From: an uncultured Candidatus Saccharibacteria bacterium
GTDB lineage: Bacteria > Patescibacteriota > Minisyncoccia > Phycocordibacterales > UBA2100
Direction of reading: 5' to 3'
Assembly (NCBI GenBank): GCA_964623775.1
Contig: CAZUVH010000006.1
Span: 4,256 to 68,255 of the forward strand
DNA length: 64,000 nt
In this document: in pieces, positions 2,893 to 55,574 of the stretch
Numbering within the stretch: the stretch's first letter is position 1
How the letters are laid out: every line of letters begins with the position of its first letter
Position numbers and translations under genes: made by a program
The notes under the pieces: generated by a model
Database searches by the model: none
The model's input: the letters and a program-made list of their open reading frames with translations, nothing else
What the model was told of the DNA's origin: nothing

Positions 2893-3480
2893 ATGACACC
2901 AAAAACGTCAGAAAGGTTTTCACAGAACCACGCCCCCAAGGGGCGTGGTTCTGGGTTTAGTCTCATCGAGCTCCTCGTCGTGATCGCAATCATCGGTATC
3001 CTCTCCGCGATTGTCCTCTCATCACTCAGTGGTTCGCGCAAAAGGGGGCGCGACAGTCGTCGTGTTGCTGATGTCGCTCAGCTTAAGCTCGCGCTTGAGC
3101 TCTATTACGACGCGAATCAGCAGTATCCCACCGTGCTCTCATCGCTCACGGCGCCAGGATATATCCCCGCTATTCCAAAAGACCCGAAATCAAATCTTGA
3201 TTATGCATACGTAGCCCTCAAGGGCGCTTCGACCAATCCCGCGGTGTGCGCGAGCTATCACCTCGGGGCAAAGCTCGAGATAGACACAACAGCCAATTCC
3301 GGATCGCCGTTCCTCGATGACAAAGACGCCACCGTGGGCGGCACGTACGGTACGGGAGTGCAGAATGGCCCGGTATGTACAGGGAGTGCGTGGGCAGGGA
3401 ATACGGATATTGCCGCAAGCGCGAGCGATTTTGATGGCAGCAGCGACGCAACGAATCTCGTATACGACATGCGTCCGTAA
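2893..3480 (+). CDS. Type IV pilin paralog
   Basis: SGFSLIELLVVIAIIGILSAIVL prepilin motif; the RKRGRDSRRVADV..LELYY region is shared with the neighbouring pilins. Confidence 0.75.
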   Translation: MTPKTSERFSQNHAPKGRGSGFSLIELLVVIAIIGILSAIVLSSLSGSRKRGRDSRRVADVAQLKLALELYYDANQQYPTVLSSLTAPGYIPAIPKDPKSNLDYAYVALKGASTNPAVCASYHLGAKLEIDTTANSGSPFLDDKDATVGGTYGTGVQNGPVCTGSAWAGNTDIAASASDFDGSSDATNLVYDMRP

Positions 3481-4091: not shown

Positions 4092-4892
4092 ATGCTCATG
4101 CTCGATATTGCGCTCCTGGGATTTGGTCTCATCATCGGAAGTTTTCTCAACGTATTGATTCTGCGGCACGGCGAGCGTTCTATCGGGGGGAGAAGTGCGT
4201 GCATGTCGTGCGGCCGCACACTGACATCCATGGATCTCATTCCTGTGCTCTCGTGGGTGATGCTCCGAGGGAAATGCCGCACCTGCAAAGCTCCGATTTC
4301 CATCCAGTATCCAATTGTGGAGGCCGCGACGGGCATCTGTTTTGTCGTTATTGGCAATGCGTTCTTTCAATATGGCTTCGAGATGTCGTGGCACTCACTG
4401 ATTGTTGTGCCGTACCTCGCCATCGTAGCGCTCCTCATCGCAATTACTGTGTACGACCTTCGTCACATGATTATTCCCGATGAGTGGGCGTATCTTTTTG
4501 CAGCGATCGCTTTCGTGACATCGCTTGTATCTATGGATTCAGGAGCGAGTGTCCTCGCGGTGATTTTGGGAGGACCGATCGCCGCATTTCCACTCTTTGC
4601 GCTGTGGTTTGTTTCAAGAGGGAGATGGATGGGGCTCGGAGATCCAAAGCTCGCGCTCGGTATTGGGTGGCTGCTCGGACCTTGGAACGGACTCATCGCC
4701 ATCTTCTTCGCATTTGTGATTGGTGCAGTCATCTCTCTTTGCGTTCTTATCCCCGTAAGTCGACTGCGACATGCAGGGGAACAGATTACAATTAAAAGTG
4801 AGGTGCCGTTTGGTCCCTTTCTTGTCGCGAGCACGGCTCTGGTATGGCTCATGACGATGTATGGGATCCCGCTCCCTCTCTTTACATGGTAA
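4092..4892 (+). CDS. pilD: Prepilin peptidase / N-methyltransferase (A24 family)
   Basis: Start taken at ATG 4092 (MLMLDIALLGF). Zn-binding CxxC..CxxC (CMSCGRTL..CRTCKAP) and a multi-TM body typical of PilD. Confidence 0.8.
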   Translation: MLMLDIALLGFGLIIGSFLNVLILRHGERSIGGRSACMSCGRTLTSMDLIPVLSWVMLRGKCRTCKAPISIQYPIVEAATGICFVVIGNAFFQYGFEMSWHSLIVVPYLAIVALLIAITVYDLRHMIIPDEWAYLFAAIAFVTSLVSMDSGASVLAVILGGPIAAFPLFALWFVSRGRWMGLGDPKLALGIGWLLGPWNGLIAIFFAFVIGAVISLCVLIPVSRLRHAGEQITIKSEVPFGPFLVASTALVWLMTMYGIPLPLFTW

Positions 4893-43243: not shown

Positions 43244-44995
43244 ATGAAGACATTTATCACATTTGTAGCCAGTTTCGTGCTCGTCCTCGGAGCCTCTCCG
43301 GTCTCTGCCCAGACGTTCAATAGTTTCTATAGTGCCGTCAATCCGGGCGTCTGTGCCAATCTCACGAGTGATCTCTCGATTGGCTCGAAAGGCTCTCAGG
43401 TACGCGCCCTCCAAACGTTCCTCGTCGCACAGAATTATTCTGGTGGTGGTAATTGGATGATCACAGGTAATTACGGACAAGCGACAGCAGCTGCGGTGAG
43501 GATTTTTCAGCAGCAACGCGGGTTGCCGATCACGGGGTGGGTGGATGCCGCGACACGTGCCGCGATTAATCAAGCGGGATGTGGCAATAGCTACGGATAC
43601 AACAATTTTAATTTCGGCAACACGTATCCCGACTACAGCTTCCCCAACAATTACTTCTACCCGTACAACTACAATAACTACCCCTATAACAACTACCCGT
43701 ACAACTACAACAACAACTGTGGCGCATATCCGTACTTCTACAGCTGCCAGACGAACACCGGATCTGCCCCGACCATCACATCGCTCTCGAACCAGTACGC
43801 AATGCCGGGGACCTCTGTCACCGTGTATGGCACAGGATTTGATAGTGTAAACAACACTGTATATGTCGGCGGTACCACGCTGCGCAATATTGCTTCCTAC
43901 AACGGCACGACACTTACCTTCGTCGTACCGACAAGCGCGGTTGGCACCGTATCGATCTCAGTCGCCAATACATACGGCACCAGCAATGCACTAACGCTCA
44001 ATACGGGCGTAAATCCTAATACCTGCAACACGTATCCGTATTATCAGTACGGCTACGGCAGCTATTGCCCGCCAGCATCCAACGGCCAGATCAGTATCTA
44101 TCCAGCTTCGGGCGGAGTCGGCACGAACGTTACCGTCTATGGCTGGAATTTCACGCAGACCAACAACACAGTGCGCTTTGGCAACGGCATCATCGCAAAC
44201 CTTAGCTCCAATGATGGCCGTTCGATCTCGTTCACCGTACCCTCCTCGATTTCCGGCTATGGCTACCAGCCGATTGGCTTGGGATCGTACAACGTATCCG
44301 TGACGAATGGCGTGGGTCAAACGAGCGGATCTGTGCCGTTTATGATTACTTCGCTTGGCGGCAGCGGCAACTCGGCAGCTCCGACCATCACGAGTGTCTC
44401 TGGTCCGACGACGATTGCCGTAAACACGCAGGGCACATGGACGCTCCAGATCAACAACAATCAGACCAATTCCTACACGACAACCTCTGTAAACTGGGGT
44501 GATCAGAATGTTTATGGCGCCGCACTCTCCGCGAATCAGACGACGTACGCGCAGGGGAGTCAGTCGGTCAGCTTCACGCACACGTACACGACGACGGGCA
44601 CCTACACGATCGTCTTTACGGTGACCGGCGTCAACGGTCTCTCGAATACTTCGAGCGTGACGGTAAATGTGAATGCAAATAATGCCGGCAACGTATCGCT
44701 GACCTCGCTCTCACCGAGCTATGGTCCGATCGGTACGCAAATCATTCTCGTAGGCACTGGTTTCACCAACGACAACACGATTTACTTCGGAATCGGCGGC
44801 AAGCTTCATGTCCCTTCGTTCAACAACGGTACGCTCATGTCGTTCACCGTCCCGCAGTACGTCGCCCCGTGCGATCTCGTACAGCCGGGCCAGGTGTGCA
44901 CTCAAAATATCCAGCAGGTCATGCCGGGTGCGATCCAGGTGAAAGTAGGGAATAGCAACGGCACCTCCCAGACCCTCTACTTTCAGGTGCTGTAA
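43244..44995 (+). CDS. Secreted cell-surface protein with a peptidoglycan-binding domain, a Tyr/Asn-rich linker and IPT/TIG-like repeats
   Basis: Signal peptide; a PG_binding_1-like segment (QVRALQTFLVAQNY..GNYGQATAAAVRIFQQQRGLPITGWVDAATRAAI); repeated PTITS..GTSVTVYGTGF beta-sandwich units. Confidence 0.55.
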   Translation: MKTFITFVASFVLVLGASPVSAQTFNSFYSAVNPGVCANLTSDLSIGSKGSQVRALQTFLVAQNYSGGGNWMITGNYGQATAAAVRIFQQQRGLPITGWVDAATRAAINQAGCGNSYGYNNFNFGNTYPDYSFPNNYFYPYNYNNYPYNNYPYNYNNNCGAYPYFYSCQTNTGSAPTITSLSNQYAMPGTSVTVYGTGFDSVNNTVYVGGTTLRNIASYNGTTLTFVVPTSAVGTVSISVANTYGTSNALTLNTGVNPNTCNTYPYYQYGYGSYCPPASNGQISIYPASGGVGTNVTVYGWNFTQTNNTVRFGNGIIANLSSNDGRSISFTVPSSISGYGYQPIGLGSYNVSVTNGVGQTSGSVPFMITSLGGSGNSAAPTITSVSGPTTIAVNTQGTWTLQINNNQTNSYTTTSVNWGDQNVYGAALSANQTTYAQGSQSVSFTHTYTTTGTYTIVFTVTGVNGLSNTSSVTVNVNANNAGNVSLTSLSPSYGPIGTQIILVGTGFTNDNTIYFGIGGKLHVPSFNNGTLMSFTVPQYVAPCDLVQPGQVCTQNIQQVMPGAIQVKVGNSNGTSQTLYFQVL

Positions 44996-45114
44996 AAGTT
45001 CGTAGTTCTTTGAAAAAGGATCAGCTGTTTGCCGCAGCGAAAAGCACCCATACGGGTTCTTCTCGCTGCGGCACAACCATTCTGGTAAAGCCGCGCAACA
45101 GAAGGAGACCCATT

Positions 45115-45798
45115 ATGGGGAGCCTCATTACTGAGACGCCGTTTTCGGAAATTACGGCAACACTCGAAGTCTTGGACCGCCACGGAGTGGGACGAGATCA
45201 TCTGAAGAAATTTCGTGCAGCGTCGTCGGGAGTGCAGGGACATATCGCCCTTATCCTGAAGACGGCTGACACGTGCACAATGATTTCGAGCACGAACACG
45301 TATACGAGCGATAACTCGAAGCCCAAGAAACTCCTCGTATCTGTTCGCTCGTTCAGGGCACCGGGCGCCAAGAAATTTGTTGCCATGAAGCAATTCCACA
45401 TCAGAATTTCTACGGACGCACGCGTGCGTATCTCGCGTCTCGGCGCCAACTTCATGACGAATTTTTTCGAGAAGACTGAGGCCGACGTTGCCGAATGCGT
45501 GCTCAAGCTTAAGCAGCTTCGTCAGGCTTCACTCGACACTCCGATCATCATGGAGCAAGGTGGCGAGAAGAAGGCCGAAATCAACCTGTGTGAATACTAC
45601 GAGACACTCGCGTATAAGCAGGCGATTCGTGACTTTTCGCGCTTGGTTGCCCATATCCGCGCTGTGGACGGCGGTCTCATGGCGGTCGCTGCTCACTGGG
45701 GCACTGAAGGCTTTGGTGGTGATGGATGGATCATCGAGGCCTTCCCGGTTGGCAATCCGCACGGCTGGAATGCTGGCAACGAGTTCGTCTCTCGCTAA
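45115..45798 (+). CDS. Paralog of the DGR target protein, carrying a degenerate VR-like 3' end
   Basis: About 60% identical to 50501..51121 across the body; its 3' end 45676..45795 is homologous to the TR but has non-adenine mismatches and a 15-nt indel. Confidence 0.55.
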   Translation: MGSLITETPFSEITATLEVLDRHGVGRDHLKKFRAASSGVQGHIALILKTADTCTMISSTNTYTSDNSKPKKLLVSVRSFRAPGAKKFVAMKQFHIRISTDARVRISRLGANFMTNFFEKTEADVAECVLKLKQLRQASLDTPIIMEQGGEKKAEINLCEYYETLAYKQAIRDFSRLVAHIRAVDGGLMAVAAHWGTEGFGGDGWIIEAFPVGNPHGWNAGNEFVSR

Positions 45799-45899
45799 TT
45801 CTATAGCTCTCTGATTTTGACCTTTCGACCCTTCGAATCTTTGTCACTTTGACGAAATTCGGAGGGTTTTTATTTTTTTTACTTTGCTATACTCCACGC

Positions 45900-46157
45900 A
45901 TGGATCCTAATAAAGTAGCGAAGCAGTTTTGCGACAATATATCAGTAGCGTTCTCACAGGAGTTTTTTGTCATGGGTATGCTCACCGGCGAAAATGGCAT
46001 TACGTACGCGCTCACGCCGCAGCACATGAAGCGTCTCGCGCAATATCTGAGTCATCAGATTACGGATTACGAAAAGGCGTTTGGTGAGATCAAGGCGGAG
46101 TGGAAGCCGGGTGTGCAGAGCCCCATCCAGACCAAGGATGTGATGGGCGGCAAGTAA
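45900..46157 (+). CDS. DUF3467-family small protein
   Basis: Start at ATG 45900; NISVAFSQEFFVMGM..TPQHMKRLAQYLSHQITDYEKAFG matches the DUF3467 pattern from memory. Confidence 0.5.
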   Translation: MDPNKVAKQFCDNISVAFSQEFFVMGMLTGENGITYALTPQHMKRLAQYLSHQITDYEKAFGEIKAEWKPGVQSPIQTKDVMGGK

Positions 46158-46196
46158 GCTTGCAAAGCAATCTTTTTGCGTCTTTGCTCGGACGAA

Positions 46197-46910
46197 ATGA
46201 AAATTGATTTTCATTTCGCATCCTCGCTAGCCGCAATGACCGAAAATGATACGATACTGCTATCTATGCGCGCGCGACTCATACTCGCAGTCGTAGGACT
46301 TCTCGCGATTGCAGCCGCCTTGATCATTGGTGCGTTTGGCATGCGTCTCGCGATGTCGCCCTACATGTACACCTCCCTTGATTCCGTGCCCCATGCAAAA
46401 GCGGCACTTATACTCGGCGCATCAGTCCAGCGAGGCTTGCCGTCACCCATCCTCGCCAATCGTGCAAATGCCGCGATCGTGCTGTATAAGGCTGGCAAAG
46501 TCGAAAAGATACTGGTGACCGGCGACGATGGTCAGTACGATTACGATGAAGTTACTCCCGTCCGAAAGTACCTTGTAGACGCCGGTATTGCAGAAGAAGA
46601 TATTTTTCTCGATCACGCAGGTTTCGATACATACAGCAGTATGTATCGCGCTCGCGATATTTTCGGTGTTGAGTCGATGATTGTCGTGACACAGGATTTC
46701 CATATGCCGCGATCTCTTTTTCTTGCGCGGCGTCTCGGCATCACCGCATATGGATACCTCGCTCCACACGAAGGAGGATATGCACGCACCTACCTTCGCG
46801 AAATTCCGGCATCGCTGAAAGCATATCTCGATCTTTTTACGCACCGCTTGCCTCGTTTTCTCGGAGATCAGATCCCACTCTCAGGGAGCGGTACGACCAC
46901 ATGGTATTGA
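46197..46910 (+). CDS. SanA/YdcF (DUF218) family membrane-anchored protein
   Basis: N-terminal TM then ILGASV..ILVTGDDGQYDYDEV..VVTQDFHMPRSL, typical of DUF218. Confidence 0.6.
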   Translation: MKIDFHFASSLAAMTENDTILLSMRARLILAVVGLLAIAAALIIGAFGMRLAMSPYMYTSLDSVPHAKAALILGASVQRGLPSPILANRANAAIVLYKAGKVEKILVTGDDGQYDYDEVTPVRKYLVDAGIAEEDIFLDHAGFDTYSSMYRARDIFGVESMIVVTQDFHMPRSLFLARRLGITAYGYLAPHEGGYARTYLREIPASLKAYLDLFTHRLPRFLGDQIPLSGSGTTTWY

Positions 46911-46950
46911 AATAATTGTAGTACTCGTCCGTCTACGCTACTATCAGGAT

Positions 46951-48453
46951 ATGAAACGTTTGTTGATTGTTGCTATGGCGATTGTTTTTTCGATGCCCGC
47001 GAGCGTCGCCGCGGCACCTCTTGAGTTTGAAGTGACGGGGTGGTTGCCGTACTGGCGAGCTTCCTCGAGTACCAAAGATGTGATGCCGCACCTCGATCTT
47101 CTTACTGAAGTAAATCCGTTCGTCTATACACTCAAGAACGACGGCACGCTTGTCGATAACGGTAGACTCGAAGAGGAGCCATGGGCGAGTTTCATTGCTG
47201 CCGCAAAAGCCAAAAAAGTGCGCGTCATCCCGACGATCATGTCAGGCAGTGGCGAGACGCTTCACCGCATATTGAGCGATACAAAATCGCGCATCGCACT
47301 TGAGGATGCGATCGCCGCCGAGGTAAAGGCCAAGGGGTACGACGGCATTGATATTGATTTCGAGGGCAAGCGCGCCGAGACCCGCGATTACTTCTCACTT
47401 TTTTTGAAGGGCCTCTACCAACGTATGGGCAACAAATGGGTCATGTGCACGATCGAATCGCGCACGCCGATCGATGATCGATACTATGGTGCCGAAACTC
47501 CGTCCGACGCGACAATCTATGCCAATGATTTCAAGGAGATCAATAAATACTGCGATCGTGTGCGCATCATGGCGTACGATCAGCAGGGGATCGATCAGTC
47601 GCTCACATCTCTGGCCGAAAAGTCCTCACAGCTTTATGCGCCTGTCGCGGACCCGCGCTGGGTAAGGAAGACGGTCGAAGTCGCCTCGAAAAATATCGCA
47701 AAAAGCAAAATACTCATCGGTATTCCGACATACGGATATGAGTACGAGGTTACCGCGTATGCAGGCAATCAATACATGTACGATATTCTTTGGACATTCA
47801 ATCCCGGCTGGGCGTATCAGCTCATGGCAAAGTACGGTGTCACAGCTGAGCGCAACGCTGCGGGCGAAATGCACTTCACGTATACGCCGAATCCCAACGA
47901 AAGTTCCATGGTGCCGCGCACTCCGACGCCGAATTCTGCTATGGTCGCAGCGATGGCGGCAAGCATGGTCGCGACGCAAGGCAACACAAATCTGAAATTT
48001 AGGCTTGTCGATTGGCCGGATGCACAATCGATTGCGGGTAAAATTGAGCTCGCAGAAATGCTTGGCGTACGCGGTGTCTCGATATTCAAAATGGATGGCG
48101 GCGAAGATCAGGGTATGTGGAAGGTGCTTGTGGGCGTCAAAGGCAGCCCTGTCGCTGCATCTGCTGCACCGCGCAGTACGATAAGTTCGATCACGAGTGA
48201 GCTCGAGCTCGGCGATAAGGGAGAAGATGTTCGTCGTTTGCAGGTCGCGCTCAACTCCGACCCCGCGACGCGTGTAGCCGCAAGCGGACTCGGCTCAAAA
48301 GGCAAAGAGAGCACGTACTTTGGCCCTGCTACACAGGCGGCTGTAAAGAAATTGCAGGAGAAATACAATATCGTCCGTCCCGGACAGACAGGCTACGGTC
48401 GCGTCGGCCCCTCGACCAAGATGCGCATCAATGCGATCCTTGATACGCTCTAA
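46951..48453 (+). CDS. Glycoside hydrolase family 18 (chitinase-like) protein with a C-terminal peptidoglycan-binding domain
   Basis: Signal peptide; GH18 catalytic motif YDGIDIDFE; C-terminal PG_binding_1-like LELGDKGEDVRRLQVAL..GPATQAAVKKLQEKYNI. Confidence 0.7.
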   Translation: MKRLLIVAMAIVFSMPASVAAAPLEFEVTGWLPYWRASSSTKDVMPHLDLLTEVNPFVYTLKNDGTLVDNGRLEEEPWASFIAAAKAKKVRVIPTIMSGSGETLHRILSDTKSRIALEDAIAAEVKAKGYDGIDIDFEGKRAETRDYFSLFLKGLYQRMGNKWVMCTIESRTPIDDRYYGAETPSDATIYANDFKEINKYCDRVRIMAYDQQGIDQSLTSLAEKSSQLYAPVADPRWVRKTVEVASKNIAKSKILIGIPTYGYEYEVTAYAGNQYMYDILWTFNPGWAYQLMAKYGVTAERNAAGEMHFTYTPNPNESSMVPRTPTPNSAMVAAMAASMVATQGNTNLKFRLVDWPDAQSIAGKIELAEMLGVRGVSIFKMDGGEDQGMWKVLVGVKGSPVAASAAPRSTISSITSELELGDKGEDVRRLQVALNSDPATRVAASGLGSKGKESTYFGPATQAAVKKLQEKYNIVRPGQTGYGRVGPSTKMRINAILDTL

Positions 48454-48517
48454 CTTGAAATTCGGCATTTTTTCTGTATAGTTGCACTGAAGCCCTCGGG
48501 GCTTTTCTCATTTACGT

Positions 48518-50302
48518 ATGGAAATCCGCAATATTGCTATTATCGCGCACGTCGACCACGGTAAGACAACCCTTACCGATGCTGTTTTGCGTCAAACGGG
48601 TGCGGCCGAAGAGGGGGTATCGATGGACTCCAATGACCTTGAACGCGAGCGCGGCATCACGATCTATTCCAAGAATGCTGCCATTTTCTATAAAGACACC
48701 AAAATTAATCTGGTTGATACACCCGGTCACTCCGACTTTGGTTCGGAAGTAGAGCGTGTCTTACGCAGTATCGACTGCGTGCTGCTTGTCGTTGATGCTC
48801 AGGAAGGTCCGATGCCACAGACACGATTCGTCCTCAAGAAATCTCTTGAGTTGGGGATCAAGCCAATCGTGGTGATCAACAAGATAGACAAGCCGGCAGC
48901 TGATCCTGCGCGCGCCGAAGAGCAGGTGCTCGAACTTTTCCTTGAACTCGGCGCGTCTGATGCTCAGTCCGACTTTCCCGTTGTGTACACGATCGGGAAG
49001 CAGGGAATTGCCAAATTGAAGCTCACCGATGAGTCCAAGGACCTGACGCCGCTCTTGGACATGATCCTGAAGCACGTGCCGCCAGCTGCCCCGGAAGGTT
49101 CCGATAACAAGCCTGTTCGCGCGCAACCTTTTAATCTCGCGTACGACAATTACCTTGGACGCCTCGCGATCGTTCGCATGTACGAAGGTGTCCTCAAGAC
49201 GGGCGATGCGGTCTTCGAAAAAACGGCTGCAGGGACAACGCGCAACGGCAAAATCACCAAGATGTTCACTTTCAAGGGATTATTGCGAGTCGAGACACCG
49301 GAAGTAGGGCCCGGTGATATCGCGATGATCGCGGGCCTACCCGATACATTTATCGGAGAGACGATCACGACTGATGCGGGGGCGGAGCCGCTTCCTGCGA
49401 TTGCGATTGATGAGCCGACGATCACGCTCAATTTCTTGGTCAACAATTCTCCATTTGCAGGTCGTGAAGGCAAATTTGTCACGACTCGTCAGATCCGCGA
49501 ACGACTTGAGCGCGAGCTCGAAGTTAACGTCGGTCTACGAGTCGATCTCGATAAAGGAGATGTCTTCCATGTTTCCGGCCGTGGCGAATTACATATCGCT
49601 ATTCTGCTCGAAAACATGCGTCGCGAGGGCTACGAAATGCAGGTCTCGCAGCCGCAGGTCATTTTCCATGAAGAAAATGGAGAGAGGCACGAGCCATACG
49701 AAGAGGTCATCGTTGATACCCCGCAAGAATATCAAGGCGCGATCATTGAGCGCCTCGGCACACGTAAATTCATCATGAAAGACATGAAAGTGCACGAGAA
49801 TCAGGTGCGACTCACCTTTGAAGGTCCGACACGTGGATTGCTCGGCTACCGCAATCAATTTGTTCTTGATACAAAAGGTGAGGGTATCATGTCTTCGCGC
49901 GTCGTAGGCTTCAAGCCGTTTGCAGGGGAGATCAAGAAGAAGCAGGTAGGCTCCATGATCTCGATGGCGACCGGCAAAGCACTCGGCTTTTCTCTGTGGA
50001 ATCTTCAGGATCGCGGCGTACTTTACATTCCGGCTGCGACTGAGGTATATGAAGGCATGGTCATCGGCAACACCTCTAAGGGTGAAGAAATGACCGTCAA
50101 CCCGACCAAGAACAAGAATCTCACCAACGTCCGTTCATCCGGCACAGACGAGGCGCTCACACTCATCCCTCCTTTCCAGCTTACGATCGAACGCGGCCTC
50201 GAGGTCATGGCAGAAGACGAATATTTGGAGATCACACCGGTCTCCGTTCGCCTGCGCAAACAGCAGCTTACCGAAAACGACCGTACACGCGCCCGCCGGT
50301 AA
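48518..50302 (+). CDS. typA: Translational GTPase TypA/BipA
   Basis: [18 protein letters not shown] and NKIDKP GTPase motifs; 594 aa with an EF-G-like domain order. Confidence 0.9.
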
Positions 50303-50500
50303 GGAATAGCATATTTTGTGGCTCTAAATCTGGTTTGAATGGAGCTTGCTTTTTGTATGAAAAGTAGTATAATACCAACGGTTCTTTGAAAGTGATTTGC
50401 CACAGCAGAAAGCAGCTTATTTTAAGCATTTTTCTGCTGTGGCGAATCCGATAGGATTGGCTAGAACAGCGGCTGTAAACCCACTCAAAAGGAGAATACC

Positions 50501-51121
50501 ATGAGTGAACAACAGATCGCCAAGCTCGCTGGTAAGATTGTCGAGCATCAAACGTTCCTCAGCGCACTCTCAACCGATGACGCCCAGTGGGCGATCATGA
50601 ACCCGAAGGACGCGATTGCGATCTTCTGCGAAGCGGTGAAGAGCCGTACCGAGAAGGTCGTCGAGAAACTCCTCGAATCCGTCGCCTCGTTCAAGGTGCC
50701 GGGCGCCAAGGAGTTCATCGCCAAGAAGCGCTTCGTCGTCGATACCTCCGAGAATGCGCGCGTGCGCATTTCGTGGCTCGGTGGCAACTTCAAGACGAAC
50801 TTCCTCGGGAAGACCGAGACCAATGTCGTCGAATGCGAGCTCAAACTCAAGAAGCTTCGTAAAGCTTCGCTCGATGCTTCCATCATCGTGGAGCAGGGTG
50901 GCGAGGAGAAGGCCGAGATCAGCTTGTGCGAGTACTACGAGACCCTTGCACATAAGCAGGCGACTCGGGACTTCTCGTGGCTTGTCGCGTACATCCGCGA
51001 CGTGAACGGCATCCTCTGGGCAGTCAGTGCCCGCTGGGGCGGTGGCGGCTGGCGCGTCGAGGCCTACTCCGTCGACTACCCGCGCGGCTGGGATGCTGGC
51101 TGCGAGTTCGTCTCTCGCTGA
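50501..51121 (+). CDS. DGR target protein (the variable repeat occupies its last 106 nt)
   Basis: The 3' end 51014..51119 is the VR of the downstream TR. The C-terminus WAVSARWGGGGWRVEAYSVDYPRGWDAGCEFVSR maps onto TR AAC (Asn) codons. Confidence 0.7.
   Translation: MSEQQIAKLAGKIVEHQTFLSALSTDDAQWAIMNPKDAIAIFCEAVKSRTEKVVEKLLESVASFKVPGAKEFIAKKRFVVDTSENARVRISWLGGNFKTNFLGKTETNVVECELKLKKLRKASLDASIIVEQGGEEKAEISLCEYYETLAHKQATRDFSWLVAYIRDVNGILWAVSARWGGGGWRVEAYSVDYPRGWDAGCEFVSR
51014..51119 (+). repeat. DGR variable repeat (VR)
   Basis: 106 nt with 89 identities to the TR; all 17 mismatches fall at TR adenines. Confidence 0.8.
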
Positions 51122-51437
51122 TCCTGTAGTCCTCTGCGTTTGCACCTTTGACCCTCTGAGTCTTTGTCACTTTGACAAAATTTGGAGGGTCTTTTTTCAT
51201 ATACAATGAGACACGAGGAACGCTCTGGCGCGACGGCCATGGCTTTCGCGCAGCGCCTCGGATATTCGTGAGCGAGAATTGCGAGCGGCATGCCGTGCGC
51301 GAGTGTGTTTGCGGAAATTCTACAAAAAAAGAAATAGGATCGGTGCGTTGCACTGGCGGACTTTGAAGTCCCACATTCGATACAGCGGCTTAGAGTATTC
51401 GAACTGCAGTGATATGGGTGGTGCGGCGCACAAATGG

Positions 51438-51543
51438 CTCTGGGCAGTCAATGCCAACTGGAACGATGACGGCTGGAACGTCGAGGCCAACTCCGTCGAC
51501 AACCCGAACAGCTGGAATGCTGGCAACGAGTTCGTCTCTCGCT
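51438..51543 (+). repeat. DGR template repeat (TR), non-coding
   Basis: Same 106-nt register as the VR, with AAC at every diversified codon; located between the target gene and the Avd-like/RT genes. Confidence 0.8.
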
Positions 51544-51560
51544 ACCCCTTCTTTCCCCGC

Positions 51561-51917
51561 TCAACCCTCTTTGTTGAGTGGGGTTTTCGTTAAGATTCCT
51601 TTGCGCCAACCGCCGATCATTCGACCCGTTTCTTCAATGAGTGCTCCAAGTTCTTCAAAGTGTTTATTTGCTATCAACTTTGCCTCCCATGCGATGTGGA
51701 CGAAAAAGCGCAGAGAATCGGTGATGCCGACTGCTCTTGTCAGCAGGGGAAGTTTCTCATGCGTGCCCGCGTATGTTGCCACACGTAGCGTTTCGAGAAG
51801 ATCAAGAAATAGTAGGTCTATTTTTGATCCGATTCCGAACCGCTCGTCACGCGATATGTTACGGCGGATGGGCAGCCACGTGCGGTATAGTTTCTTCACA
51901 TGTTCAACGACAGGCAA
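51561..51917 (-). CDS. Four-helix-bundle protein (23S rRNA IVS / Avd-like DGR accessory protein)
   Basis: 118 aa, start codon TTG or GTG; the helical pattern LLFLDLLETLRVATYA..LTRAVGITDSLRFFVHIAWEAKLI..FEELGALIEETGRMIGGW is typical of the four-helix-bundle family that includes DGR Avd. The family assignment is recalled from memory, not searched. Confidence 0.65.
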   Translation of the reverse strand: MPVVEHVKKLYRTWLPIRRNISRDERFGIGSKIDLLFLDLLETLRVATYAGTHEKLPLLTRAVGITDSLRFFVHIAWEAKLIANKHFEELGALIEETGRMIGGWRKGILTKTPLNKEG

Positions 51918-52966
51918 GACTCGGTTGGGGGGGGGGTCGTACGGGACGGGTTCAGTTCACTCATAGCTACGAGGATATCATTTCGATAGAAAATTTCCTT
52001 GCGGCGTGGAAAGAGTTCGTAAAGGGTAAACGTAAGAAGAAAGATGTGCAGGAATTCCAATACCGTCTGATGAACAATGTTCTCGCACTCCATCGGGATC
52101 TCGCGACGAAGATGTACAAGCACGGCGAATATCAGCACTTTAAGATCAACGATCCAAAGCCCCGTGATATTAACAAGGCGACCGTCCGTGACCGTCTGCT
52201 TCACCATGCGATATACCGAAAACTCTACCCATTCTTCGATCGAACGTTCATTGCCGACTCGTACTCGTGTCGGAAAGGGAAGGGGACGCACCGTGCTATG
52301 AACCGGTTTCGAGATTTCGCATACAGGGTGTCAAAAAATCACACACGCACGTGCTGGGTACTCAAGTGCGATATTCGCAAATTCTTCGCCTCAATCGACC
52401 AAAAGATTCTTCTCGATATCGTCGCGGACTATGTACCTGATAAGAATATCCTCGGACTCATTGCCGAAGTCGTCGGCAGTTTCAATTGCCCCCAATTGTT
52501 CACGGCCGTTGATAATAGGGGGAAATCAAAGAAAGGACTTCCGCTCGGTAATCTCACATCGCAACTCCTCGTGAATATCTACATGAATGAGTTCGATCAG
52601 TTCGTAAAGCATAAACTGAAAGTAAAGTATTACATCCGCTACGCCGACGATTTCGTAGTTCTCTCCCATGATAGGGCACAGCTGGTAGAAATGGAGCGAT
52701 ATATCGCTCCATTTCTGAAGGAACGGTTGTTACTCGAATTACATCCGAACAAAGTATTTATCAAGACGCTTGCATCCGGAGTGGATTTTCTGGGGTGGGT
52801 GCACTTTCCCGATCATCGAGTGTTACGGACAGTGACGAAGCGGCGGATGGCACGCCGCACAGCGGGACTCGCAGAGGAGAGTCCGATTGTCCAGTCATAC
52901 CTCGGCCTCACGTCGTACGGGAATACTGAGAAAGTGCGTCATGAAGTGAGAAAGAATCTTATTTGA
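51900..52966 (+). CDS. DGR reverse transcriptase (5' end split across two frames at a G10 tract)
   Basis: RT motifs including LPLGNLTSQLLVNIYMN (DGR-type IGxxxSQ motif 4) and YIRYADDFVV (YxDD). The conserved N-terminal region SYEDIISIENFLAAWKEF lies in frame 2, while the only upstream ATG (51900) is in frame 0, separated by G10 at 51927..51936. Confidence 0.85.
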
Positions 52967-53930: not shown

Positions 53931-55574
53931 CTACTTGAGAAGCTCCTGAAAGATTGCAAAAACCGACGCGGTAAACATAGAGAGTGGTGTCATAGATGTT
54001 GGGCCGCTTTGTTGTGCGTCCGTATCCGGTCTCTGCGTAGGATCCATCATTCCATTACCGGGCCTTTGCGCGGGTATATTCATCGGAGGTCTTACCCCCT
54101 CAGGTCTCATGCCTTGGGGCATGTCAGGACGTGTTCCCGGTTGTCCAAAATTCCTTTCGTATTCACCGGCCGGTGCACCCTGGCGCAAAGGCATCGCACC
54201 TTGCGGTCTTTGCGGCATATTTTCTGAGGGCTCGACCATAACGCGAGGTCTCATATCGTCACTTTGTGATTGGTCGAAGTTTCCTTGCGGCCTCCTCTGC
54301 GGCGGAATTTCAGAACCTTCTTCCCTCATGCCCTGCGGGTAGGGACGCTGGGGCATTCCTTGGATTTGCTGAGCATCTATCATTTCAGGTCGTTGCCCGA
54401 TTTCGCGACACTGATCGGGATTTTCTTTGCAGAATGCCTCACATTCTTCCCGATTCTTGCATCCGCCAGGACCCTGCATCATGCCGGGCACGCCTTGTGG
54501 CGGACCCATTCGCATATCCGAACCGCCTTCAAATTGTCCACGCCCTTCTCTTTGCATGAATCCATTTTGCATTGCAAACTGGCGGCACTCTTCTGCGTGC
54601 GCACTGTCTTCGCAATATGTTTTGCACTCCTCGCCCTTGCATCCGCCAGGACCCGTCATTTGCATAAATGTGCGTGCTCTCTGCGCGTCTTCAGATTTCA
54701 TAAAGCCGTTCTTCTCGGCGAATGCGACACACTCTTCTGTATGTGATTCATCGGCGCAGTAGGTACGGCACTCCTCACTTTTGCATCCGCCCGGTCCGGG
54801 CTTTCCGGCAAATTTTTGTGCACGCTCAGCCTCGTCTTTAGTCATGAGGCCATTCTCCTTTGCAAAAGTTATGCATTCTTCCGCATGAGTGCTGTCGGTG
54901 CAGTATGTTTTGCATGAATCAACATCGGTGCATCCACCGGGACCGGTTTTTGTCGAAAGGATATCGTTGATCTTCCCGCGCAGCTGTGCCGGTGGGCCAT
55001 CCGGTCGTTCTATGTCAGACATCTCGCGCCCATCGCGTGGCGCCCTTAGTCCGTGTTCTTCTGCAAATTTCTTGCACTCCTCAAAATTCGCTTCTTGCGA
55101 GCAGTACGTGCGGCACTCCTGTTCGCTCTTGCAGCCGCCAGGGCCCCCCTTACTTTCGAGTGTCTCTGCGATTTTCTGCTCCCTCTCATCCAGGAGTCCG
55201 TTTTTCTTTGCAAAGTCGAAACACTCCTGCCTGTTGGCTTCCACTTCGCAGTACGCACGGCATTCGGTCGCACTGGTGCAGCCACCGGGGCCTTTACTTT
55301 TTATGCTCATGAATTTTCGTGCTCTTTGCGCCTCGTCTTTTTTCATGAGTCCATGCGTTTCCGCGTAGGCGAGACAGGCATCTTGGTGCGACGCATCAGC
55401 GCAGTACGCACGACACGATTCTTTGGACTCGCAGTTGCCGAGTTCTGGGATAGGGAAGGTGACCTGCGGCTGAGGAGGAGCGGATTCGTCAGCGCTGGTT
55501 ACTTCCTGCGCGAATACGACGCCCGCAGTCATGAAAACCGCAGTTGCGAGCGACGCGGTCAATAATTTCTTCAT
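53931..55574 (-). CDS. Secreted protein with six to seven tandem cysteine-rich repeats (GPGGCxSxxECRxYC..EEC..FA..NG) and a Pro/Gln/Met-rich C-terminal tail
   Basis: Signal peptide; repeats of about 45 aa, each with 4 Cys and a conserved His; low-complexity tail ending in a hydrophobic segment. Confidence 0.5.
   Translation of the reverse strand: MKKLLTASLATAVFMTAGVVFAQEVTSADESAPPQPQVTFPIPELGNCESKESCRAYCADASHQDACLAYAETHGLMKKDEAQRARKFMSIKSKGPGGCTSATECRAYCEVEANRQECFDFAKKNGLLDEREQKIAETLESKGGPGGCKSEQECRTYCSQEANFEECKKFAEEHGLRAPRDGREMSDIERPDGPPAQLRGKINDILSTKTGPGGCTDVDSCKTYCTDSTHAEECITFAKENGLMTKDEAERAQKFAGKPGPGGCKSEECRTYCADESHTEECVAFAEKNGFMKSEDAQRARTFMQMTGPGGCKGEECKTYCEDSAHAEECRQFAMQNGFMQREGRGQFEGGSDMRMGPPQGVPGMMQGPGGCKNREECEAFCKENPDQCREIGQRPEMIDAQQIQGMPQRPYPQGMREEGSEIPPQRRPQGNFDQSQSDDMRPRVMVEPSENMPQRPQGAMPLRQGAPAGEYERNFGQPGTRPDMPQGMRPEGVRPPMNIPAQRPGNGMMDPTQRPDTDAQQSGPTSMTPLSMFTASVFAIFQELLK

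Follow-up and report, generated by a model that had tools for sequence, protein, structure and literature searches.

A candidate phyla radiation-type diversity-generating retroelement with an adenine-only repeat pair and a folded RNA leader on a Saccharibacteria contig

In the prototype diversity-generating retroelement (DGR) of the Bordetella phage BPP-1, the order is mtd-avd-TR-brt on one strand, TR being the template repeat (Handa et al., PMC6182149; 10.1101/2023.10.23.563531). The reverse transcriptase (RT) is wrapped by a structured 140-nt spacer located 3' of TR, and of the sequence upstream of TR no more than a short segment is needed (PMC6182149; 10.1101/2023.10.23.563531). The spacer carries an Avd-binding stem-loop just past TR and pairs with the short upstream segment, which stops cDNA synthesis (10.1101/2023.10.23.563531). 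In the candidate phyla radiation (CPR), 90% of the DGRs have 'Architecture B3', TR-(avd)-RT (Wu et al. 2018, PMC5758913), and five were found among ribosomal protein genes (Wu et al., PMC5758913). Targets without a signal or known domains and an inverted avd have already been reported for CPR DGRs (PMC8144416, PMC5758913). Here, we describe a DGR at positions 50501–52966 of a 64,000-nt stretch, called the window below, of contig CAZUVH010000006.1 from an uncultured Candidatus Saccharibacteria bacterium (assembly GCA_964623775.1).

With a probability that we put at about 0.92, the element is a chromosomal CPR-type DGR that rewrites the last 35 codons of gene 50501–51121 and is active, or was so very recently. 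The cassette consists of the following parts:

50501–51121, + strand: target (variable protein) gene, 206 aa, an open reading frame (ORF) with an ATG start
51014–51119, + strand: variable repeat (VR), the last 35 target codons and the first base of the stop codon, with 17 adenine-only mismatches to TR
51438–51543, + strand: TR, non-coding, with 25 adenines
51561–51917, − strand: avd (accessory variability determinant), 118 aa, TTG start, convergent with TR and divergent from the RT gene
51927–51936, no strand: poly-G tract of 10 G between the divergent avd and RT starts
51941–52966, + strand: RT gene, whose conserved N-terminus ..GRVQFTHSYEDI begins here; stop codon at 52964–52966

The gene order, the inverted avd and the CPR relatives are shared with the CPR DGRs described as B3 (PMC5758913) and as 'DGR clade 2' (Roux et al. 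2021, PMC8144416), and the target is alike in having no signal peptide, transmembrane segment or known domain. As the layout equals the published B3, the element belongs to this known CPR class and adds a further case to a well-catalogued group. The novelty suggested by the original prediction was overrated, since a signal-less target without known domains and an inverted avd are both documented traits of CPR DGRs (PMC8144416, PMC5758913). No difference in kind from these systems was found; the folded leader RNA reported below is absent from their descriptions (PMC5758913, PMC8144416).

The locus resembles BPP-1 in the adenine-specific transfer from TR to VR, in the presence of Avd, and in the position of VR, which closes the target gene and contains AAY codons. 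It further has a hairpin downstream of VR and a stem-loop just downstream of TR, as BPP-1 does. In contrast to BPP-1, avd is inverted, and TR is followed by 12 nt, a hairpin with a U-run and then the antisense avd. Moreover, the large covarying structure of the window lies 5' of TR, and there is no long structured spacer on the same strand between TR and the RT gene.

The repeat pair, its alleles and the DGR proteins

Alignment of VR with TR using MAFFT gave 106 columns without gaps and 17 mismatches. Tabulation of the bases by script showed that TR has an A at each of the 17 mismatches, while none of its 81 non-A positions is changed. TR is composed of 25 A, 32 C, 30 G, and 19 T, and the probability that 17 random mismatches would all land on the 25 adenines is 5.5e-14. 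Thus, the adenine-only, gapless relationship claimed from the letters alone was confirmed, and the three reading frames (the 206-aa ORF starting with ATG, the minus-strand Avd ORF and the RT frame ending at 52966) were as described. The non-coding copy indeed lies downstream; the gap between the repeats measures 318 nt and not 320 nt. The edges of the homology are sharp, the preceding base being G in VR and C in TR, and 3' of the final common T the two copies part at the target stop codon.

VR begins at codon position 1 of the target ORF. The adenines of TR fall into nine AAY codons, six codons with a single A (GAY, GAG, AGC) and one silent GCA, and by arithmetic on the genetic code the AAY and single-A codons together allow approximately 1.6e14 protein variants and no stop codon. 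When both strands of the window were scanned with tolerance for adenine changes, no other TR-like copy with at least 75% non-A identity was found. The A-free 14-nt segment GTTCGTCTCTCGCT at the 3' end is identical in VR and TR, with flanks that differ from the stop codon on. Hence, unlike in BPP-1, the putative initiation of mutagenic homing sites IMH and IMH* do not differ inside the repeat; a 19-bp hairpin is found 30 nt downstream of VR but not of TR. TR is the invariant master copy, from which VR departs only at TR adenines.

Evidence for activity comes from a second allele. The 90%-identity cluster of the target contains a second sequence that is identical over residues 1–175 and has 13 differences between residues 176 and 201. 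A 5,758-bp contig of the Logan assembly of SRR12808459 (L056; loci used for comparison are denoted by L and a number) is equivalent to window positions 45783–51540. The two differ at 18 of 5,758 nt, and all 18 differences lie inside VR at TR-adenine positions (P ~7e-47 for this placement by chance). All 18 differences between the VR allele of L056 and TR are likewise at adenines, and TR is identical in both over the covered part, 51438–51540. Between them, the two alleles carry substitutions at 23 of the 25 TR adenines. Population heterogeneity at TR-adenine sites, which had been put forward as a check on the original prediction, is therefore seen in two independent assemblies that differ nowhere else over the stretch they share. 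At the protein level, VR-confined variation was also found in three other 90%-identity clusters of the target family, where one sequence derived from short reads has two substitutions upstream of VR as well. The lack of non-adenine differences between VR and TR and of any difference outside VR in 5.7 kb indicates that the last homing events were very recent. We conclude that the DGR is active in this population or was so very recently.

An ordinary duplication, with the pattern produced by chance, protein selection or recombination with a paralogue, would dispense with a retroelement. The window does contain a possible partner 5 kb upstream with a similar C-terminus:

45115–45798, + strand: target paralogue, 227 aa, with a different N-terminal segment and 64% identity over the core domain

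Its VR-like end (VR2, 45676–45796) has 13 A and 10 non-A mismatches to TR and a 15-nt insertion, while its last 33 nt equal TR, including four unmutated adenines, so some non-mutagenic homogenisation or selection does take place. However, the two probabilities given above exclude chance, and the segment at 51438 encodes no protein and has avd and a DGR-type RT gene as neighbours. Nor can the paralogue have been the donor, because its insertion and its non-adenine differences are absent from both VR alleles. A duplication without a retroelement is thereby effectively refuted. Full-length homing would erase the insertion and the non-A differences, so VR2 is not currently rewritten over its length, and its TR-identical 3' end suggests selection or non-mutagenic conversion. 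L056 begins inside the VR2 repeat and is thus uninformative on it. Accordingly, the second paralogous target proposed earlier exists as a paralogue, but its diversified status was not upheld in view of the 15-nt insertion and the 10 non-A mismatches.

The proteins agree with the repeats. The RT matches Pfam RVT_1 (E 6e-23), and its translation carries the motifs LGNLTSQ and YADD. Its best match among the chains of the PDB was 8ub7_A (E 1.8e-38, 136 bits), while group II intron RTs and deposited chains named 'retron-type' were found at approximately 1e-18 and at most 70 bits, the weakest listed RT chain being at 2.6e-9. In the aligned numbering of 8ub7_A, the residues D215, D216, I181, G182 and Q187 are those named for the Bordetella RT (bRT) in 10.1101/2023.10.23.563531, which identifies the closest solved relative as the prototype DGR RT of the Bordetella phage; as in BPP-1, I/LGxxxSQ and YxDD are kept. 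The NCBIfam model for group II maturases scored 143.7 bits, under its cut-off of 300. Judged from its sequence, with an I/L/VGxxxSQ-type motif and YxDD, the RT appears to be of the DGR lineage, nearer to bRT than to group II or retron RTs, as had been predicted from the two motifs.

Avd scored 44.2 bits with Pfam PF22296 (bAvd; cut-off 40) and 60.5 bits with NCBIfam NF033474 (DivGenRetAVD), under the cut-off of 80, and had no sequence match in the PDB. The bAvd match above the cut-off supports the prediction of an Avd-like gene on the opposite strand between TR and RT, and the position and orientation of avd are the same in all related cassettes. Altogether, the adenine-only mismatches, the DGR-like RT, the bAvd match and the differences between the VR alleles all agree and support the claim of a complete DGR signature.

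RNA elements around the template repeat

The region between the target stop codon and avd holds a series of predicted RNA elements:

51150–51197, + strand: 19-bp hairpin and U-run, 30 nt past the target stop; minimum free energy −27.1 kcal/mol, z = −4.8
51200–51207, + strand: −10-like box TATACAAT, directly 3' of the target terminator; putative promoter of the TR RNA
51213–51437, + strand: structured leader RNA of approximately 225 nt, immediately 5' of TR
51229–51250, + strand: leader helix P1 (RNAalifold)
51260–51320, + strand: leader helix P2, with the inner hairpin P2a at 51279–51302 (RNAalifold)
51325–51331, + strand: invariant A-run of the leader (leader alignment)
51343–51354 with 51420–51431, + strand: long-range 12-bp leader helix P3 (RNAalifold)
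51358–51371 and 51385–51407, + strand: P3a and P3b, enclosed by P3 (RNAalifold)
51555–51587, + strand: 11-bp GC-rich hairpin and U-run, 12 nt past TR (terminator scan); −19.0 kcal/mol, z = −4.1

The hairpin at 51150–51197 is the terminator of the target gene and possibly also the GC-rich inverted repeat that DGRs have downstream of VR. An equivalent hairpin with compensatory changes follows the paralogue (45827–45868), and a hairpin with a T-run is found 3' of VR in the related loci. TATAAT-like boxes are located in these loci at the place equivalent to 51200–51207.

The leader was found by nhmmer upstream of TR in every related cassette, with E values from 1e-13 to 1e-60 and with three target families. 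In the leader alignment (n = 14), 95.0% of the cells pair, as compared to 34–50% with slid partners, and compensatory double changes occur in 33 of the 41 pairs, against 11–15 with slid partners. The covariation score was 0.626 versus at most 0.173, and no shuffle attained the observed values. P3 ends 6 nt 5' of TR. On the opposite strand, the hairpin 3' of TR coincides in part with the final avd codons. All 13 cassettes examined have a hairpin and a U-run after TR, with stems that differ in sequence. The window hairpin is terminator-like and, by analogy, placed like the Avd-binding stem-loops of other DGRs (10.1101/2023.10.23.563531).

The leader resembles the Rfam 'RT' motifs in being a structured RNA beside an RT gene. 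Among these motifs, RT-10 corresponds to the BPP-1 spacer. RT-7 belongs to those found near RT genes and suggested to be possible DGR parts (Weinberg et al. 2017, PMC5737381). RT-7 (RF03028) gave a sub-threshold match over P2 only, in which the first RT-7 hairpin is aligned with the P2 hairpin (internal-loop consensus CCAGAAU...GAGNGUG, then AAAUUC). However, the match skips 126 model positions and amounts to 20.5 bits, the gathering score being 116.8. As it stays far below this score and covers one hairpin, the leader is at most a distant relative of RT-7 and not a member. None of the 13 related loci attained any Rfam gathering score, a scan of viral contigs with the leader pattern gave no match, and we found no description in the literature of a folded leader 5' of TR or of an RNA model for the B3 architecture.

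Following the Bordetella phage paradigm, the TR-containing RNA would be copied by a complex of RT and Avd that misincorporates opposite template adenines, and the cDNA would then replace VR. The anatomy of the locus and the comparison with its relatives suggest that the template RNA is a short transcript of its own, approximately 375 nt long. It would start after the −10-like box and comprise the folded leader, the 106-nt TR and the GC hairpin with its U-run. P3 may stop cDNA synthesis 6 nt before TR, and the 3' hairpin may bind Avd. By analogy with BPP-1, we infer that leader, TR and hairpin make up the DGR RNA of this clade, with P3 as its upstream stop.

Two further pairings were considered and dropped. 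RNAalifold paired the 5' end of the leader (GAGGAAC, 51215–51221) with the 3' end of TR (GTTCGTC, 51530–51536), a helix that could serve as a template:primer duplex; double changes occur in only 2 of the 6 pairs, and we regard this helix with low confidence. A 'cPRT stop'-like pairing of the sequence just upstream of TR with UUGCGCC past the hairpin, judged by eye, is lost in L006 and L025, and the conservation around UUGCGCC is explained by the coding sequence for the C-terminal GGW(R/K)KG of Avd. Separately, locus L052 has a copy of the leader (4203–4343, model positions 2–142 only) 3' of an orphan member of the target family, running into pilM/pilO-like genes. This truncated copy appears to be what is left of a cassette that was lost.

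Target family and related cassettes

The target is composed of an N-terminal three-helix segment (approximately residues 1–55) and a core domain of approximately 150 aa, and its AlphaFold model has a mean pLDDT of 89.5. By eye, no signal peptide or hydrophobic segment was visible, and neither the target nor the paralogue had a Pfam or NCBIfam match. There are 35 close homologues, the named ones coming from metagenome-assembled genomes (MAGs) of Kaiserbacteria/Parcubacteria. The family profile collected 2,838 representatives at 50% identity, mostly of about 200 aa and 541 of them with E ≤1e-30, and no relative in the PDB by sequence. The family alignment displays a conserved C-terminal scaffold, LWAVxAxWxGxGWxVxAxSVxxPxxWxAGxxFVSR, in which the x positions correspond to the A-containing TR codons. 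The diversified residues map to the C-terminal strands of what seems to be a small cytoplasmic protein with only a distant likeness to C-type lectins. One family representative, P0036 (926 aa), contains five matched stretches of the core domain.

Distant homologues with about 30% identity occur in Bradyrhizobium and other soil bacteria and have N-terminal signal peptides and a fixed C-terminal scaffold. Those of loci L007–L019 (for example L009, 5800–6429), from Bradyrhizobium, Beijerinckiaceae, Xanthobacteraceae and Acidobacteriota, are about 205 aa long with the scaffold ...WGGxGWEIGASP...W.xGxRVFSR, and no RT or Avd was found within 6 kb of them. They apparently represent a non-diversified, secreted branch of the family. 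Several CPR paralogues of the target also lie far from any RT, and orphan paralogues adjoin genes for a type IV pilus ATPase or a type IV secretion system coupling protein (L054, L055).

Thirteen distinct related cassettes were found among genomes, metagenomes and single contigs, all with target/VR, TR, avd on the opposite strand and RT, and belonging to three target families. Their VR/TR pairs are adenine-only, or nearly so, in all 13. The RTs of L057–L059 are approximately 68% identical to that of the window and accompany unrelated targets, with 25, 18, and 29 adenine-only mismatches, respectively. The related loci are mostly labelled Kaiserbacteria, Parcubacteria or Patescibacteria, and two related MAGs are labelled Saccharibacteria. 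In L050 (3501–5975; also in L049), the entire cassette lies within a ribosomal protein operon, between the L5 and S14/S8 genes, which parallels the five cases of Wu et al.; others adjoin nusA (L057), ndk (L058) or an integrase gene (L059). These differing chromosomal neighbourhoods indicate that the cassette moves between sites.

As to the surroundings in the window, near-perfect hairpins lie just upstream of both paralogous genes, at 50394–50448 and 45030–45073, with arms of 26 nt at 85% complementarity in one and 20 nt at 90% in the other, and probably serve to terminate the genes before them. A 583-aa ORF (43244–44995, + strand) just ahead of the paralogue has a start that resembles a signal peptide, followed by a low-complexity stretch rich in Asn and Tyr and several repeats of about 90 aa that are rich in Thr, Ser and Gly. 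On the other side of the cassette, a 547-aa ORF (53931–55574, − strand) has a signal-peptide-like N-terminus, about nine copies of the cysteine motif GPGGCxSxxECxxYCxxxxHxxECxxFAxxNG and a Pro/Gln/Met-rich tail.

The start of the reverse transcriptase and the state of the element

Several points weigh against the reading of the locus as a working DGR. One of them corrects the earlier description of the RT gene: an in-frame start scan found no ATG, GTG or TTG in the RT frame between avd and the conserved ...QFTHSYEDI, so the present-day expression of the RT is not assured. Moreover, the VRs are identical across samples in three related populations (L003/L020/L021, L005/L028/L029 and L049/L050), which shows that turnover of VR at the consensus level is not fast everywhere. 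On the RNA side, a consensus promoter scan did not call the box at 51200–51207, so that the promoter is putative, as are the transcript ends, the binding of Avd and the stop at P3. A pairing test between leader and TR, a crude matrix of cognate and non-cognate duplex energies, displayed no specificity. For the target, Foldseek searches against the PDB and BFVD gave only insignificant matches, and a C-type lectin fold, as in the DGR variable proteins Mtd, TvpA and archaeal AvpA, is weakly supported.

The first two of these points could mean that the DGR was recently silenced through the loss of its RT start (ATG to ACG), so that the RT is poorly or not translated and VR is frozen. Codon 51941–51943 is indeed ACG where close relatives start, the window reading TGRVQFTH and these relatives MGRVQFTH; many RT relatives begin with MGRVQFTH or MRGGG.... 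On the other hand, the RT frame shows no other damage and retains its catalytic motifs, and the absence of non-adenine VR/TR differences in 106 nt and of any difference in 5.7 kb outside VR implies very recent homing. In addition, L001, L002, L003 and L005 have no ATG, GTG or TTG at the RT start either, yet keep adenine-only VR/TR pairs, which points to an unusual start rather than decay. Recent silencing is therefore improbable in our view. As VR was rewritten very recently, the RT of this active or very recently active DGR is presumably made.

The 380-aa product given by NCBI for the RT gene would begin at TTG 51824. Two other starts were tried. A frameshift start at the TTG just before the poly-G tract, with one G lost, fits the window, L003 and L005, fails in L001, L002 and L006, and is thus not general. 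An upstream extension of the RT antisense to avd was rejected since its frame relative to avd is not conserved between the window and the relatives. The poly-G tract itself has equivalents of 6–10 G in nine related loci and none in one (L025), and a single related population has 12 G in one assembly and 10 G in another (L028, L029). In L050, a TTG lies 5 nt 3' of the G-run, a spacing that suggests a possible role of the run in ribosome binding. The tract is possibly a Shine-Dalgarno-like site, a coding stretch for Gly-Gly-Gly or a slippage-prone switch. As a separate observation, 19 nt are missing from L020 (around 3395–3420), among them the start codon of avd and three residues of the G-run, as compared to L021 and L003, the population being otherwise identical.

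Taken together with the RNA elements, these features allow a tentative proposal, to which we would give less than even odds, that a large CPR clade uses a 'permuted' DGR RNA. In such an RNA, a folded leader of approximately 225 nt that recruits and positions RT and Avd would stand 5' of the template, not 3' as in the Bordetella phage, and a hairpin terminator would follow TR. Priming would have to differ from that at Sp-A56 and could, for example, use a nucleotide of the leader or the 3' end left by termination, and RT expression might further be gated by the poly-G tract together with the non-canonical RT start.

The locus is chiefly valuable as a clean, demonstrably active DGR, with a 5.7-kb background that is the same for both VR alleles. 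How RT expression is controlled is a testable question raised by the poly-G tract and the lack of a start codon. The target family is large, unannotated and without a Pfam model, and the culturable hosts of its non-diversified branch, Bradyrhizobium and relatives, could serve to study the scaffold of the CPR variable proteins. The leader accompanies three unrelated target families and offers a concrete candidate for the RNA that binds RT and Avd in the B3 architecture. Its role, if confirmed, would mean that a rearranged RNA is compatible with a DGR ribonucleoprotein and would provide a compact new system for engineered targeted mutagenesis.

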